The notes under the pieces were generated by a model, which did no database searches, was not told the origin of the DNA, and worked only from the letters and a program-made list of their open reading frames with translations. From an uncultured Planctomycetia bacterium (lineage in GTDB: Bacteria; Planctomycetota; MHYJ01; CAYXQY01): a stretch of 64,000 bases of DNA. The stretch is taken from contig CAZOLI010000009.1 of NCBI GenBank assembly GCA_964580675.1, positions 7,008 through 71,007 of the forward strand, in the 5' to 3' direction. Of this stretch, positions 3,351-19,635 are shown piece after piece. Position 1 is the stretch's first letter; every line of letters begins with the position of its first letter. Both the position numbers and the translations under genes were made by a program.

Positions 3351-4370
3351 TTATTGCGGGTCCTGGAGGTCGTATTGCTGCTGGTAATAATCTTCAAACT
3401 CCCCCTGTTTTAAGGGTTTCCACCACTCCTCCCTCTCCTTATACCATTTTACGGTACGTTCAAGACCCGAGTCAAAGGAAACGTCGGGGGACCAGCCGAT
3501 TTCCTCCCGCAACTTTGTGCAATCAAGCGAATAACGGGCATCGTGACCGGGACGGTCCTCGACGAATTCAATCAGTGATTGTGGCTTCTCAAGGACATCC
3601 AGTATGCCTCGAGCAACCTCGATGTTCTTCTTTTCACAATCGGCCCCGATGTTATAAACGGATCCGGGGCTTCCGTTCTCGATAATTTGTCGGAGCGCCC
3701 TGCAATGATCACGGACGAAGAGCCAGTCCCGTACGTTCGAACCGTCTCCGTACAGGGGAAGAGATTCGTCGTTCAGCGCTCCGGTTATAAAAAGGGGAAT
3801 GAATTTTTCCGGGTACTGGTAGGGTCCGTAATTATTTGTGCTCCGGGTGGTGATTACCGGAAAATCGTAGGTCTCCTGATAGGCATTTACGAGCATATCC
3901 GCCCCGGCCTTGGACGCTGCATAGGGGTTGGAGGGATTTAACCGATCCTCCTCCGAGAAGGAAACCCCCTCCGGCGCACTGCCATATACCTCGTCGGTGG
4001 AGACGTGAACAAACAGGGACACCTCATATTCACGGGCCTTCTGAAGCAGGAGCTGCGTCCCGTATACATTTGTTACGACAAACGGACGTTCATCGTTCAA
4101 ACTCCGATCCACGTGGGACTCGGCGGCGAAGTGAACAACCACGTCCGGATTCGCTGTCAGCGCCGAGGACACAGCTTCCTCGTCGGTGATGGAGCCGTGT
4201 ATAAACTCGTACCGCCCGTGGTCCTCCAGGTCCGATAAATTTTCCCGGTTGCCTGCGTAGGTGAGGGCATCCAGATTTGTGACCCGGGCATCCTGATCTT
4301 CCTCAATCAGGTGGCGGATAAAATTCGTGCCGATAAATCCACAGCCACCTGTAACGAGGTAACGTGTCAT
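3351..4370 (-). CDS. rfbB: dTDP-glucose 4,6-dehydratase
   Basis: TGGCGFIG, DALTYAGN, HFAAESHVDRS, STDEVYG, YAASK, NNYGPYQYPEKFIP, RPGHDARY. Confidence 0.95.
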   Translation of the reverse strand: MTRYLVTGGCGFIGTNFIRHLIEEDQDARVTNLDALTYAGNRENLSDLEDHGRYEFIHGSITDEEAVSSALTANPDVVVHFAAESHVDRSLNDERPFVVTNVYGTQLLLQKAREYEVSLFVHVSTDEVYGSAPEGVSFSEEDRLNPSNPYAASKAGADMLVNAYQETYDFPVITTRSTNNYGPYQYPEKFIPLFITGALNDESLPLYGDGSNVRDWLFVRDHCRALRQIIENGSPGSVYNIGADCEKKNIEVARGILDVLEKPQSLIEFVEDRPGHDARYSLDCTKLREEIGWSPDVSFDSGLERTVKWYKEREEWWKPLKQGEFEDYYQQQYDLQDPQ

Positions 4371-5743
4371 CAGGATTCACTATCCCCGGAATCGGCGAGT
4401 GACAGGCCGAGTTCGGAGAGGGTGTCCTTCACCTCCTGGAGTGAGGTCTCGCCGAAGTTCTGACATTCGAGCAATTCCTCCTCCGTTTTTTCAACGAGGT
4501 CTTTGACCGTGTAGATCGAAAGCCGCTTCATCGCCCGCTTGCTGCGCGCTGACCAGTCAAAGTCCTCGATTTTCTTCCGGAGAATGTCGTCGACTTCGTC
4601 CGGTGGCGGACCCGGTTTGAGGGTCACCTTGTTTCGTCCGGCCTTTGACAGTGAGAGATCGCGCTCATCGAGGAACTTCTTCACCCGTTCGAGGGAATAC
4701 TGGCCGAAGTTGTCACAATTCAGAAGTTCCTCCTCCGTGCACTGAATTAAATCACCGATGGTTTCTACGTTCAGCTGGTCGAACGCATCAAGAATTCGCT
4801 GGGGGAACTCAAATTCCTCAACGGATTTGTTGAGGAGTTTTCCGGTTTCAACGCGTTTCCGCATGCGTTCCTCCCGGAAGCTAAGATTCATGGATGCATC
4901 CGCATCACCCAGGTACAGTTCGGCGATTTCGTGATCCGGTCTCTCCTCCAGAATCATCCGGTAACAATCCTTCGCGCGTTCAAACTCCCCCTGATCTTCG
5001 TACAGGAGCCCGAGGTTCATAATCGGACCTTCGTGGGCGGGGGAGATGTTCATGATCTTTTCGTACAGTTCCCGGCTGTAATCCTCCGGCTCACGATCCG
5101 GGTCATCCGTCTCAACGGCCTGCCGGTTCAGAAGATTGGCCTTCCGGAAAAGACTGTGAAGATGTTCCGGGTCTTCTTCCAGCGCCTGGTCGTAGCACTC
5201 GAGAGCGTCTTCCCGGAATCCTTCCATTTCGTTTACGAATCCGTCGAGGTACAGGTAATTCGGTGAGCCATCGTACTGATCCTCTTCGTCATCCACCCAG
5301 TCCCGGGCTTCTTCAATTTCATTCAGATTCAGGTAGGACTCGACCAGATTGACAAATATGCGTTCATAGTATTCATCCTGGTCGGCGTACTCCTCGTAGA
5401 GGTCTTCCAGAACCTCGGCGGAGAGGTGAAATTCCCCCATTTCCTTATACGAGAGTCCTTCTACCAGACGGGACTCCCGGCTGGGTTGCGTACCGTCCAG
5501 CAACTCCGCGGCGTCCTCCGGGCTACCAAGTATCCAGGCCATTGTCGCTTCCCGCACAATGGCCCTGTTGTCGCTGGAAAAATCCTCGTAATGGTCGTCG
5601 AAATTCTCCTGAAGTTCCTGAAGTTCTTCGGCGAGTTCCTCGTCTTCACGTACGGCGTCACTTAACTCAAAAATCTGTTCGGGAGAGATGTTGTCGTCCA
5701 GAAACGTCTCCGTTATTGATTCTTCGGCGGTTTTTACAGTCAT
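4370..5743 (-). CDS. TPR protein with two C-terminal RNA polymerase alpha-CTD-like domains
   Basis: TPR-like helical repeats, then two alpha-CTD-like units (TIGDLIQCTEEELLNCDNFGQYSL and TVKDLVEKTEEELLECQNFGETSL). Start placed at ATG 5743 (MTVKT). Confidence 0.8.
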   Translation of the reverse strand: MTVKTAEESITETFLDDNISPEQIFELSDAVREDEELAEELQELQENFDDHYEDFSSDNRAIVREATMAWILGSPEDAAELLDGTQPSRESRLVEGLSYKEMGEFHLSAEVLEDLYEEYADQDEYYERIFVNLVESYLNLNEIEEARDWVDDEEDQYDGSPNYLYLDGFVNEMEGFREDALECYDQALEEDPEHLHSLFRKANLLNRQAVETDDPDREPEDYSRELYEKIMNISPAHEGPIMNLGLLYEDQGEFERAKDCYRMILEERPDHEIAELYLGDADASMNLSFREERMRKRVETGKLLNKSVEEFEFPQRILDAFDQLNVETIGDLIQCTEEELLNCDNFGQYSLERVKKFLDERDLSLSKAGRNKVTLKPGPPPDEVDDILRKKIEDFDWSARSKRAMKRLSIYTVKDLVEKTEEELLECQNFGETSLQEVKDTLSELGLSLADSGDSES

Positions 5744-5989
5744 GCTCTTCGTTTTTCTAACGAAAAAACAAAAATTTTCCGATGCAGACAAACCCCGGCA
5801 TCCCGCGAATTACACGGCATTTACTGGTTGAATAACGTCCGGGTATGATATACAGCAACCAATTTTAACAGTAAGGCCGGTATGGTTCAATGCAAATCCG
5901 GATCCGCCGGTTCACGTGGTGAACCGACCCCAGCGCTGTGTGAGAGGAATCCCCCGCTCCTTGCCCGTCTCACGTTCTTTCCGGTCATT

Positions 5990-7150
5990 TTTATTGGAGC
6001 GGTGTGAAGAATCATCTTTGCCCTCGTGATCCGTTCCGACCTTTTTTGCAAAGGCAGATGTTTTCGTTCCAGTTGGAACGGTTTTCCCTACACACTGGGG
6101 GCGGAAGCATCCATGCTTTCGCATGTTTTATTTTTCAGGAATCACGGCCTCCCTTCCACAGGCAATCTCAACCGGGCCTTCATGCATTCTCTTTATCTTT
6201 ATCCTTATCCTTATCTTTATCTTAAAAACGCCCCCTCCGTCACCGTCGGGGCTCCGGCTTTGGTGAAAAAGTCTGCTATCAAAATCTCTTTCGTTCCCTA
6301 TCACCCGGACTCCGCTCCCCTGCTCAACCCCTTACTCCTGACTCCTTACTCGTAACGTATGCTCGCCTCTTTATCTTTTTCCTTATCTTAATATTTTAGA
6401 AATACCCCTCGTGACTTATTTTTCCTTCCCCCCGGCTGAACGGTTCTACATTTGATCCCTTACTCCTGATTCCTTACTCGTAACGTATGCTCGCCTCTTT
6501 ATCTTTATCTTTATCCTTATCTTTATCTACGGTCCTGCGGACCGTCCCATTCCCCTCCCTGATAAAAGATGGCGTGCCGTTTAGGCACTCCCTGCTTCCA
6601 TCGGATTCCGTCCGGTTGGTGCTCCTGCTTTGGTGATAAATGGCCCGCTCCGTGACCGTCGGTGCTCTGGCTTTGGTGATAAATGGTCCGTTCCGTGACC
6701 GTCAGTGCTCCTGCTTTGGTGAAATGGTTTTTCTTCAATCGCCTATCGCCCGCCGTTTTCACGCCCAACGCACCACGCATCACGCATAACGCTACTAACG
6801 CCAATAACGCAACTAACGCCACAAACGCCACGAACGCAATAATCCTTATCTTTATCAACGGACCTGCGGACCGTCCCACTGGGGGCGGAAGGGTCCTCGC
6901 TTTCGCATTTATTTGATAAATCATCCACCCTGGCTGGACATCCCTCGATCGCCAAACCGGGTCTGTCTATGTTCTCTTGATCTTGATCTTTATCTTGATC
7001 TTAATCTACGGTTCGAAGAACCGTCCCACGGTCGGGGCTCCGGCTCTGTTGAAATGGTTTTCCTTCAATCGGCTATCGCCCGCTGTTTTCACTCATCAAC
7101 CCATCAACGCAACACGCATCAACCCATCACCCCATACTCAACTCATCATC
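5990..7150. repeat. Composite non-coding repeat mosaic, locus 1
   Basis: YTTATC runs at 6192, 6370, 6498, 6844 and ~6976. A 50-bp direct repeat at 6329-6378/6457-6506. The GTCGGKGCTCYGGCTTTGGTGA-like module at 6241, 6617, 6656, 6697 and 7028. AACGCNNNN x6 at 6788-6841 and CATCAACC-like 8-mers at 7094-7150. Confidence 0.9.
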
Positions 7151-7171
7151 CTGATCATGTTCTTCAAAAGC

Positions 7172-7579
7172 CTACGTGGTGGACCCGACGGGTTCCTCTC
7201 CCACGTTTTCCCGGATAAACTCGATGATGTCGTCCAGGGGTGAACCGGGGCGAAACACTTCTGCCACCCCCATTTCCTTCAATTCTTCGGCGTCGTCCCG
7301 GGGAATAATCCCCCCCACGACAAGAAGGGTGTCCGTTAACCCGGCCTCCTCCATTTCGTCCAGCAATTTTGGAATAAGCGTCATGTGAGCACCGGAGAGA
7401 ATGCTGATGCCAATGACGTCCACGTCCTCCTGCAACGCCGCCTCCGCAATTTGATCCGCCGTCTTGTGCAGGCCGCTGTAGACCACCTCCATCCCCGCAT
7501 CACGGAGGGCATTCGCAATGACCTTCGCCCCCCGGTCATGACCATCCAGACCAATTTTTCCAACCATTACACGAATCAC
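7172..7579 (-). CDS. Cobalamin-binding small subunit of acyl-CoA mutase (IcmB/MutB-like)
   Basis: [10 protein letters not shown] (DxHxxG), [18 protein letters not shown]. Confidence 0.95.
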
Positions 7580-7616: not shown

Positions 7617-9326
7617 TTACAGTGCCGTTACTTCCGACCAGGTGCCGTACACATCCCGGAGCACATCAACGGTTTCACCAAGCGTGGCCTTCGCCCGGGC
7701 GGCTTCTATTATCGGATACATCAGGTTCTCGTCTTCACGTGCCGCTTTCTCAAGGTCGTCCAGCGCATCGCGGTATTTCCGTTCCGACCGGTTTTCCTTG
7801 AACTGACGGACAGCGGCCCGCTGTTTTCCTTCGAGTTCCTCCGGAATTTTCAGTATCTCCACGGGCTCTTCCTCTTCCTCCTCCACGTATTTGTTGACGC
7901 CCACGATCACTTCCTCCCCCTCTTCCACTTTCTGCTGATACTCGTAGGAGGCCTTGGAAATTTCCTTCTGGAAATAACCCTCGCGAATACATTCTATGAC
8001 ACCTCCCTTCCGGTCAATCTCCTCAAAGTACGATTCGGCCTCTTCCTCCATCCGTTCCGTAAGGGACTCCACGAAGTACGAGCCCGCCAGCGGATCAACC
8101 GTATCCGCCACATTGATTTCATGGGCGATAATTTGCTGGGTGCGAAGGGCAATTTTCACCGCCTCCTCCGTGGGAAGGGCAAGGGCTTCGTCGTACGAAT
8201 TCGTGTGAAGACTCTGGGTTCCGCCGAGCACGGCCGCAAGCGCCTCGTAGGCGGTGCGCACAATGTTATTCATCGGTTGCTGTTCGGTCAGGGAGACCCC
8301 GGCCGTCTGGGTATGGAACCGCAATTTCATGGATTTCGGGTTTTCGGCCCCGTACTCCTCCTTCATGTGACGCGCCCAGATCCGGCGGGCGGCGCGATAT
8401 TTTGCGATTTCCTCGAAGAAATCAAGATGGGAGTTAAAGAAGAAACTCAATCGCGGGGCAAATTCATCCACGTCCAACCCCCGTTCCTTTGCCCATTCGA
8501 CGTATTCAAACCCATTGGCCAGCGTAAAGGCCAGTTCCTGGACAGCGGTGGATCCGGCCTCGCGAATGTGGTAACCGCTGATGGAGATGGGGTGCCACTT
8601 CGGCATTTCACGGGCACAGAATTCCACGGTGTCCGTAACCAGTTTCATGGACGGATCGGGCGGAAAAATAAACTCCTTCTGTGCCTGATATTCCTTCAGT
8701 ATGTCGTTCTGCGTGGTTCCCCGGAGATGATCCCCCGGCACGTCCTGGTCACGACCAATAATGTAATAATACGCCAGCAGGATCGCGGCGGGGCCGTTGA
8801 TGGTCATGGACGTACTGATTTTGCCGAGGTCAATGCCTTTGAACAGCGTCTTCATGTCTTCCAGGTGGCTAATAGCGACGCCTTCCCGTCCCACTTCTCC
8901 CTCGGACATGTCATCGTCACTGTCCAGCCCCATGAGCGTTGGCATGTCAAATGCCACGGACAATCCGGTTTGTCCCTTATCCAGCAAATACTTGTATCTC
9001 TGATTTGTGTCCTCGGCCGTTCCAAACCCGGCAAACTGCCTCATGGTCCAGAGGCGCCCCCGATACATCGAACGATACGGACCCCGGGTAAACGGGAATT
9101 CCCCCGGCATCCCCAGATCCTCCTCGTAATCAAGGTCCGAAACGTCCTCCGGGGTATACAGCGGCTTTACCGATATACCGGACATCGTTTCGTACCGTTC
9201 TTTCCGTTGAGGAGCTTCCTCAAGGTGTTCTTTCCAGTTGTCGTAGGCTTCGGATAGTTCGGTTTGATCCGAATTATCCCTCGACTCCTCCGGTTTTTCG
9301 CCGTTGTTCTTTTCTTGTTCACTCAT
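7617..9326 (-). CDS. B12-dependent acyl-CoA mutase large subunit, isobutyryl-CoA mutase-like (IcmA-like)
   Basis: PFTRGPY...[48 protein letters not shown]. There is no fused B12 domain. Confidence 0.9.
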
Positions 9327-19289: not shown

Positions 19290-19635
19290 GGGTGTAAATC
19301 ATCATCTTTGCCGTCGGGGTCCGTCCCCGACCATATTTGGCAGGGATGCCTTCACCCCAATTCCGTATTGTTCCCTTGTTTCGGAAGAATCCGGGACCCC
19401 GAACATTTCCACCGCGGGTGGACGTATTCTCGCCTCTTTATCTTTATCCTTATCTTTATCTTAATCCACGGTCCTCCGGACCGTCCCGTCCCCCTCCCTC
19501 ACGGTCGGGGCTCTGGCTTTGGGGAAACAACCGTCTATAACAATCTCTTTTGCTCCACAGCACACCAGCCCCCGTGCTCCTCCGCTCCCCTGCTCAACTC
19601 CTCACTCCTTACTCCCCCCTCCTTACTGACCCACT
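19290..19635. repeat. Composite non-coding repeat, locus 2 (homologous to locus 1)
   Basis: 19422-19499 is nearly identical to 6483-6560, 19500-19630 aligns with 6241-6350, and 19291-19350 aligns with 6001-6060. Confidence 0.9.

Follow-up and report, generated by a model that had tools for sequence, protein, structure and literature searches.

The window, a 64,000-nt stretch of DNA from an uncultured Planctomycetia bacterium, carries at positions 5981-7140 an island made wholly of short repeats, which lies in the intergenic gap between an icmB-like gene and a gene coding for a TPR protein. We found that this island belongs to a family of about 16 non-coding modules that is real, dispersed and polar, a conclusion that we hold with high confidence. 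The polarity of the islands is independent of the neighbouring genes and follows the local GC skew, and with it replication. Taken as a whole, the explanation that we prefer, a REP/BIME- and STRR-like family that was moved as single-stranded DNA by Y1 HUH enzymes and then remodelled, seems to us to have about an even chance of being correct.

The genome is a 3.57-Mb bin of 179 contigs, 84% complete, and the window lies on contig C9. When the gap was compared with the genome by BLAST, 436 matches at 71 loci were found, with E-values down to 1e-68. Mapping of 16 hand-defined modules with blastn-short placed about 133 islands across the draft genome, and an unbiased self-comparison delimited 198 repeat islands, 59.9 kb in total. 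Thus, the modules are not confined to two loci, and the suggestion of a dispersed BIME/STRR-like family made in an initial annotation of this DNA is borne out. Together with an island on C50, the island in the window is the largest assembled. Across the genome we counted 64 runs of hexamers (module H), 52 of 7-mers, 22 of 8-mers and 30 of 9-mers, as well as 62 copies of module B on 31 contigs. Exact words of at least 16 nt that recur elsewhere in the genome cover 73% of positions 5990-7150, and the repeat pattern of the island is far above chance. The family repeats also explain much of the fragmentation of the bin, as about a quarter of the contig ends lie in them (84 of 358 ends are at most 150 nt from a repeat island). 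Since large contigs, including C1, C9 and C11, end in family repeats, repeats and long contigs must come from one organism.

From stop to start codon the gap spans positions 5744-7171. It had been described as a 1.4-kb gap filled with repeats; this holds for 5981-7140, but 5744-5980, inside the gap and outside the island, is unique sequence. The module blocks first recognized in the sequence alone were all recovered at or near the positions given for them, by repeat comparison and with Tandem Repeats Finder (TRF), and the interleaving of 6-, 7-, 8- and 9-nt units on a G-poor plus strand (19% G versus 31% C) was likewise confirmed. The island opens with a head (U-A-A2), after which come five units; each of them begins with hexamers and lacks different parts. 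The features of the locus are as follows.

4370-5743, minus strand: TPR protein with two RNA-polymerase alpha-CTD domains (PF03118); its start codon bounds the gap.
5981-6092, plus strand: module U, one of several possible island heads (8 copies in the genome by BLAST).
6093-6124, plus strand: module A, CACTGGGGGCGGAAG...CTTTCGCAT, a 9-10-bp hairpin (6101-6122) followed by a T-run.
6126-6189, plus strand: module A2, the linker from A into the hexamer run (3 genome copies, each followed by H).
6190-6224, plus strand: H1, hexamer run (YTTATC)n, which opens unit 1 (TRF period 6, 5.7 copies).
6225-6270, plus strand: B1, a single 43-nt unit with core GGGGCTCCGGCTTTGGTGA (repeat comparison).
6328-6369, plus strand: 7-mer run (CTCCTKA) and module C (CTCGTAACGTATGCTCGCC), which close unit 1.
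6368-6391, plus strand: H2, a degenerate hexamer run, which opens unit 2.
6416-6449, plus strand: module D (TTATTTTTCCTTCCCCCCGGCTGAACGG; 9 copies on 9 contigs).
6457-6497, plus strand: second 7-mer run and module C, which close unit 2 (91% identity to the copy at 6329).
6496-6528, plus strand: H3, hexamer run, which opens unit 3 (TRF score 59).
6529-6545, strand unassigned: S1, hairpin ACGGTCC-TGC-GGACCGT.
6552-6616, plus strand: module E, hairpins GTGCC-GTTTA-GGCAC (6574-6588) and CGGA-TTC-CGTCCG (22 copies).
6615-6726, plus strand: B2-B4, tandem array of the 43-nt unit (TRF period 43, 2.4 copies, 88% matches, score 175).
6734-6762, plus strand: module F (TTCAATCGCCTATCGCCCGCCGTTTTCAC; 13 genome copies).
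6760-6842, plus strand: 7-mer and 9-mer runs (CACGCAY; TAACGCCAC)n (TRF).
6842-6874, plus strand: H4 and S2 (ACGGACC-TGC-GGACCGT, one mismatch), which open unit 4; the hexamer run itself is 6842-6856.
6877-6908, plus strand: second module A, hairpin 6885-6906 and T-run (84% identity to the copy at 6093).
6974-7024, plus strand: H5 (YTTGATC-type hexamers) and S3 (ACGGTTC-GAA-GAACCGT, a compensated stem), which open unit 5; the hexamer run itself is 6974-7007.
7028-7092, plus strand: B5, then the second module F (86% identity to 6698-6762).
7093-7140, plus strand: 8-mer run (CATCAACS)n (TRF period 8), which stops about 30 nt short of the icmB-like stop codon.
7172-7579, minus strand: icmB-like gene with a B12-binding domain (PF02310); its stop codon bounds the gap.
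19344-19522, plus strand: a second, smaller family island in the window (U C H S B), with the polarity of the main island (from the module map, C9:26351-26529).

The initial annotation had counted five (YTTATC)n runs, and these are H1 to H5; the 8-mers that it named lie at 7094-7135. The 43-nt block, GTCGGKGCTC...TTTGGTGA, does occur five times (6245, 6615, 6658, 6701 and 7031). Three further blocks were found twice, as had been proposed: the 7-mer/C block, CCCTTACTCCTGAYTCC...GCTCGCCTC (also given as CCCTTACTCC...GCTCGCCTC), at 6329 and 6457; the F block, TTCAATCGSCTATCGCCCGCYGTTTTCAC, at 6734 and 7064; and the A block at 6093 and 6877. Module U is a decayed hairpin block, which in better copies reads GAAGGCA-NNN-TGCCTTC; copies elsewhere show a compensatory stem variant (CGAAAGCA/TGCTTTCG), and a scan for terminator-like sites detected a small hairpin with a T-run inside the module, at 6064-6081. 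On the minus (G-rich) strand the two 7-mer runs at 6328-6369 and 6457-6497 read (TAAGGAG)n and resemble Shine-Dalgarno sites. Many (TAAGGAG)n copies have an ATG 6-8 nt further on; those in the window read ...GGAGTAAGGGATCAAATGTAG, in which the start codon is immediately followed by a stop. The 3' end of the genome's own 16S rRNA is ...GGATCACCTCCTTT (also given as ...CACCTCCTTT), and the 7-mer is CTCCTTA.

Across the genome, the modules follow a cycle, H-(S)-(E)-B(n)-(D or F)-(8/9-mers)-(7-mers-C), and back to H. A tally of which module adjoins which has few filled entries and runs one way: after C comes H (22 of 24 cases), after H either S or B (31 cases) and after the 7-mers C (19 cases), and T leads to F, F to the 9-mers and A2 to H. 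In 128 of the 133 islands all modules lie on one strand. The shuffled order read from the island in the window is therefore replaced by a directional grammar. Besides U, islands may be headed by K or by P, a long palindromic block with 50-95 copies. Eight P-headed islands from different contigs could be aligned; they are collinear, with roughly 85-95% identity, and differ by the clean gain or loss of whole modules between internal repeats, a B...B deletion for example. Because the copies are collinear with indels at the level of modules, much of the apparent shuffling reflects deletion, duplication and slippage in a longer composite. Both insertion-like ends and internal deletions or duplications are present among the islands, and simple 6-9-nt tandem runs together with unstructured blocks make up more than half of each island.

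Three to five of the modules are hairpins, the remainder being runs of 6-, 7-, 8- and 9-nt simple repeats and blocks without structure, and some of the hairpins show compensatory changes. The S, E and A hairpins, with 11-37 genome copies, all show such changes in their stems. Three versions of the S stem were found (TCC/GGA, TTC/GAA and CC/GG), all fully paired, with variable loops (TCC, GAA, TGC, ACC and GGT). In each of 37 genome copies S directly follows a hexamer run, and at least six islands stop exactly at the foot of the S hairpin, with unique DNA beyond. Module E shows a compensatory double change, GTGCC/GGCAC versus GTACC/GGTAC, with at least four copies of each, and folds well on both strands (RNAalifold, -21 and -23). 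For module A the values are -14.4 on the plus strand and -9.0 on the minus strand; an invariant G.T wobble makes the plus, G-poor strand fold better, and on that strand the predicted structure looks like a terminator. Module B was considered as a conserved hairpin and rejected, as its RNAalifold energy is near zero.

The orientation of the islands was compared both with the neighbouring genes and with the GC skew. Two-sided islands lie between convergent (19), divergent (13) or tandem (34) genes, which is near random, and no preference for an orientation relative to neighbouring genes was found. The contigs show a uniform GC skew of 5-10% at the scale of a replichore. With the repeat islands masked, we compared the G-poor strand of each island with that of its flanks. 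The two agreed for 32 of 41 islands with 10-kb flanks (p = 4e-4) and for 29 of 33 where |skew| > 0.02 (p = 1e-5). When whole-contig skew was used, 42 of 48 islands (p = 1e-7) and 24 of 28 contigs (p = 2e-4) were concordant. All 19 scorable 9-mer blocks are on the G-poor strand of their contig, and the palindromic P block, which serves as an internal control, is unbiased (16/39). As the leading strand is generally G-rich, the G-rich strand of the islands (the minus strand in the window) would have the leading-strand sequence and would form the template of the lagging strand. The coding bases show a weak bias towards the G-rich strand (53.5%), compatible with leading-strand placement. Near 40 kb on C4 the skew flips from about -10% to +5%, at a candidate replication origin or terminus.

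The distribution of the family was assessed in two ways. In a BLAST search with 287 nt against 40 relatives, three of them of the same taxonomic family, the modules were absent and only four weak matches to hexamer runs were found. Similarly, a B-core pattern with 21 specified bases had no exact match among 185,579 species genomes (one each) or in the JGI metagenomes. As far as the searched collections show, the family is private to this lineage.

The initial annotation had raised the possibility of a linked Y1 or RAYT gene elsewhere in the genome, and genes of both kinds are present. Seven matches to the Y1 transposase family (PF01797) were detected. Five are proteins of about 150 residues, one of them cut by a contig end, with 33-45% mutual identity. 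All five pass the NCBIfam IS200 model (61-84 bits, cut-off 55) and carry the motifs DH[IV]H, WQ and YIxNQxxHH, the signature of TnpA(Y1) subclass 1.2 by comparison with Table 1 of PMC6006769. Enzymes of this subclass are low-copy proteins of about 150 residues, with about 36% identity between copies, which are reported to behave neither like insertion sequences nor like RAYTs and to occur mostly in Cyanobacteria and Bacteroidetes (Quentin et al. 2018, PMC6006769). TnpB (PF07282) was searched for in the genome and not found. Among all paralogue families, Y1 is the one most enriched beside islands: each of the four scorable genes is adjacent to one, against a background of 8.9%. Moreover, when genes were ranked by the abundance of flanking 16-mers, a criterion used by Bertels et al. 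for RAYTs (PMC5581495), three of the five Y1 genes were in the top 5-7% of 2,378 genes. At two loci, on C90 and C150, the sequence upstream of the Y1 start codon holds, at a distance of 330-500 nt, the P head of an island, which is directed away from that codon. Relatives in the same taxonomic family have 0-2 Y1 genes of the subclass-1.2 type, versus five here. In a relative (G001), the orthologue of the C3-type gene lies between inverted double-hairpin repeats, in an arrangement like that of a REPtron, and in a relative of the same taxonomic family (G002, C9:3500-13000) a subclass-1.2 Y1 gene was seen about 3 kb from the orthologue of the TPR-alphaCTD gene.

The only canonical class-2 RAYT of the genome is at C135:203-1036 (NF047646, 99.7 bits). 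On its flanks is a REP of its own, GGGAGCGCCGGTGCCCTCACCGGCG, present in both orientations; the island in the window contains no copy of it. About 240 nt downstream is an open reading frame beginning MKKPYYFFSSGRLKRK, which may be Cas1-like, judging by eye. GTAG-CCCGGGG hairpins occur beside the Y1 genes, in only about 8 copies, so that a GTAG-tagged REP was ruled out as the core of the family. On C104 (5538-5622) an H-S unit abuts half of such a hairpin, the intact form of which is found just 3' of the Y1 gene on C100 (5090-5135). By comparison of the two sequences, this may be an insertion junction, the other side of which was lost at the contig end.

How might these elements have spread? 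We suggest that Y1 HUH enzymes would move or copy them in single-stranded form at the replication fork, with the G-rich strand (minus in the window) on the lagging-strand template, the strand on which Y1 transposases act (PMC6006769). The likeliest enzymes would be the five divergent, solo subclass-1.2 TnpA(Y1) paralogues, which lie in repeat-dense DNA. Slippage in the runs of simple repeats, together with unequal recombination where B and H modules recur, would then remodel the islands. A role in the cell, such as that of a possible terminator in module A on the G-poor strand, would be secondary. An orientation tied to replication is the signature expected of single-strand mobilization by HUH/Y1 enzymes. 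Both the pairing of enzyme and substrate and the single-strand mechanism are, however, inferred.

Several observations weigh against this explanation. No clean REPtron, that is, a Y1 gene flanked by the window's own modules, was found in the genome, and the immediate flanks of the Y1 genes on C90, C100 and C150 are the other, low-copy GTAG-CCCGGGG hairpins. The Y1 genes on C3 and C160 have no abundant flanking words. Four of the five Y1 genes are on short contigs, and because short contigs are bounded by repeats by construction, the adjacency of Y1 genes and islands is partly confounded. Subclass 1.2 has been reported without REP association (PMC6006769). With a skew corrected for gene strand, the polarity concordance falls to 15 of 21 (p = 0.08). 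Modules B, C, D, F and T gave no convincing hairpin with RNAalifold. Finally, the orthologues of the TPR-alphaCTD gene in three relatives of the same taxonomic family have a different upstream gene, so that they do not provide a pair of filled and empty sites.

Some of these points fit a different account, which we regard as rather unlikely, in which the modules spread without a dedicated transposase, by slippage, template switching, gene conversion or unequal recombination. The Y1 genes would then be bystanders that pile up in permissive, repeat-rich DNA, and the polarity would stem from strand-asymmetric slippage or from selection. That the module-level indels fall between internal direct repeats and that the copy number of the simple-repeat runs varies is in line with such a process, as are the lack of a clean REPtron with the modules and the report of subclass 1.2 without REPs (PMC6006769). 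Yet more than 100 unrelated intergenic sites have been colonized, which calls for a transfer step beyond slippage. Slippage and recombination also leave aside the coincidence of island ends with the foot of a hairpin and the finding that, of all paralogue families, Y1 is the most enriched beside islands.

It is less probable still that the islands are selected cis-acting or RNA elements, the spread of which is secondary. On the G-poor strand these would be the terminator-like hairpins of module A and CU-rich runs resembling anti-Shine-Dalgarno sequences; on the G-rich strand, (TAAGGAG)n arrays, similar to Shine-Dalgarno sites and possible targets of CsrA or ribosomal protein S1. Six terminator-like sites were found versus 2.3 +/- 1.5 in shuffled sequences, and the invariant G.T wobble strengthens the A hairpin on one strand only. 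The end of the genome's 16S rRNA (CACCTCCTTT), set beside the 7-mer CTCCTTA, also speaks for a role of this kind, which has been proposed for the TAACTGA heptamer arrays as well (PMC4679880). However, the islands show no preferred orientation relative to neighbouring genes, a comparison of both strands of 5600-7300 with Rfam 15 was negative at E <= 1, and the relatives are without the family, so that no conserved regulatory role is visible.

We think it very unlikely that the internal arrangement of the island in the window is partly an artefact of assembly, produced by a wrong path through the repeats of a short-read bin. The bin is in 179 contigs, many of them broken in family repeats, and an independent Logan contig (run SRR14300226) breaks at the first hexamer run. 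Nevertheless, that contig agrees fully with the assembly from icmB into the island, 172 nt of which it spans, down to position 7000; this part covers the 8-mer run, B5-F and part of H5-S3. Moreover, the longest exact match of the region is 49 nt to elsewhere in the assembly and 36 nt within the region itself, so that ordinary k-mers and read pairs can resolve the path, and the module order obeys the grammar of more than 100 other islands.

That the island is decayed coding sequence or a set of small genes can practically be dismissed: although open reading frames of 100-133 residues are present, such as one of 133 residues at 6523-6924 on the minus strand with a hydrophobic stretch, and the 9-mer run translates to a hydrophobic segment, these frames are a by-product of the G-poor, stop-poor composition, the 43-nt tandem unit, not being a multiple of three, breaks the reading frame and recurs in each of the three frames, the copies elsewhere are separated by indels with lengths not divisible by three, and neither six-frame translation nor Pfam, searched also with the three longest open reading frames, gave a match. 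A CRISPR array had been discounted from the outset and was rejected here too, as there is no fixed repeat-spacer period and the would-be spacers are themselves repeated modules.

TPR-protein paralogues form a cluster of 108 members, 23 of which have a repeat island no more than 400 nt away (p = 1e-4 against a background of 8.9%); the island in the window also adjoins a TPR gene (4370-5743). A TPR protein of 909 residues, encoded at C110:2419-5145, has a weak N-terminal Y1-like match (PF01797, 34.9 bits) and an in-frame 54-nt repeat (GPLPxGRGSGSGSTEAEE), the DNA of which matches the core of module B in BLAST. On the other side of the gap, the icmA-like mutase (7617-9326 in the window) has its closest counterparts in the species collection in Gaiellaceae and other Actinomycetota (65-69% identity), and not in the genome's own class. 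These best matches reflect patchy inheritance of the gene, and suggest that the mutase operon may have been inherited horizontally.

Repeats scattered through intergenic DNA affect how genomes are built and expressed and interrupt assemblies of metagenomes, and their origin outside the Proteobacteria is mostly unexplained. If the proposed link to the Y1 enzymes is true, subclass 1.2 gains a function and the heptamer arrays of other phyla gain a candidate mechanism. A broader proposal, which we put forward only tentatively, is that subclass-1.2 TnpA(Y1) enzymes, so far an orphan group, may drive a distinct kind of one-directional, replication-oriented composite repeat, in which hairpin modules are joined to 6-9-nt tandem runs, and may also be at the origin of the STRR/TAACTGA-type arrays of Cyanobacteria and Bacteroidetes, in which this subclass is mainly found. 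On that view the present genome, in which there are five paralogues and some 130 islands, would be an extreme case.

Compared with known systems, the family resembles REP/BIME-RAYT and IS200/IS605 elements in its workings, yet it lacks the features by which members of either are recognized. Modular intergenic repeats include the pneumococcal BOX elements, boxA-(boxB)n-boxC with variable internal modules, and the neisserial NIMEs, which are RS/dRS3 mosaics. These differ from the family described here in their sequences and hosts, which are unrelated, and in having far fewer module types; we know of no replication polarity or association with Y1 genes for either. STRR heptamers are known from Cyanobacteria. 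These heptamers and the TAACTGA heptamer arrays of Beggiatoaceae, Cyanobacteria and Bacteroidetes (PMC4679880) share with the present family intergenic, strand-asymmetric runs of 6-9-nt units at many loci, and the taxonomic range of their hosts overlaps that reported for subclass-1.2 Y1 genes (Cyanobacteria, Bacteroidetes). Here, in contrast, four families of units are fused with hairpins and blocks, the order of which is set, and the runs are not preferentially located just upstream of start codons.

IS200/IS605 elements and their gene-less derivatives (PATEs) are likewise strand-specific, with ends defined by sub-terminal hairpins and an orientation tied to replication, as single-strand transposition takes place on the lagging-strand template (PMC6006769). 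Their Y1 genes are near-identical and multi-copy, often accompanied by tnpB, whereas those found here are 33-45% identical and come without TnpB. Moreover, each island is a long chain of modules of variable make-up and not a shell of LE and RE, and no target tetranucleotide was identified. The REP/BIME/REPIN-RAYT systems are also high-copy, intergenic, non-coding and lineage-private mosaics of hairpin modules and other short motifs (PMC6006769, PMC3116915, PMC5581495), and the Y1 HUH genes of the genome described here are divergent, present as single copies and situated in repeat-dense DNA, three of the five with abundant 16-mers in their flanks. However, its Y1 genes are of subclass 1.2 (Y...Q..HH) and not class 2 (Y...NP), and its sole class-2 RAYT, on C135, has its own, different REP, which the island in the window lacks. 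The S, E and A hairpins carry no 5' GTAG or CGTC tag; the sequence around S is ATCT-ACGGTCC...GGACCGT-CCCA, and neither strand has a GTAG on its 5' side. BIMEs and REPINs are inverted pairs of REPs, whereas the islands have one polarity (128/133), and the island in the window has no inverted repeats of at least 14 nt. Thus, it is a strict grammar and a single polarity that set this family apart from the inverted pairs of BIMEs and REPINs.

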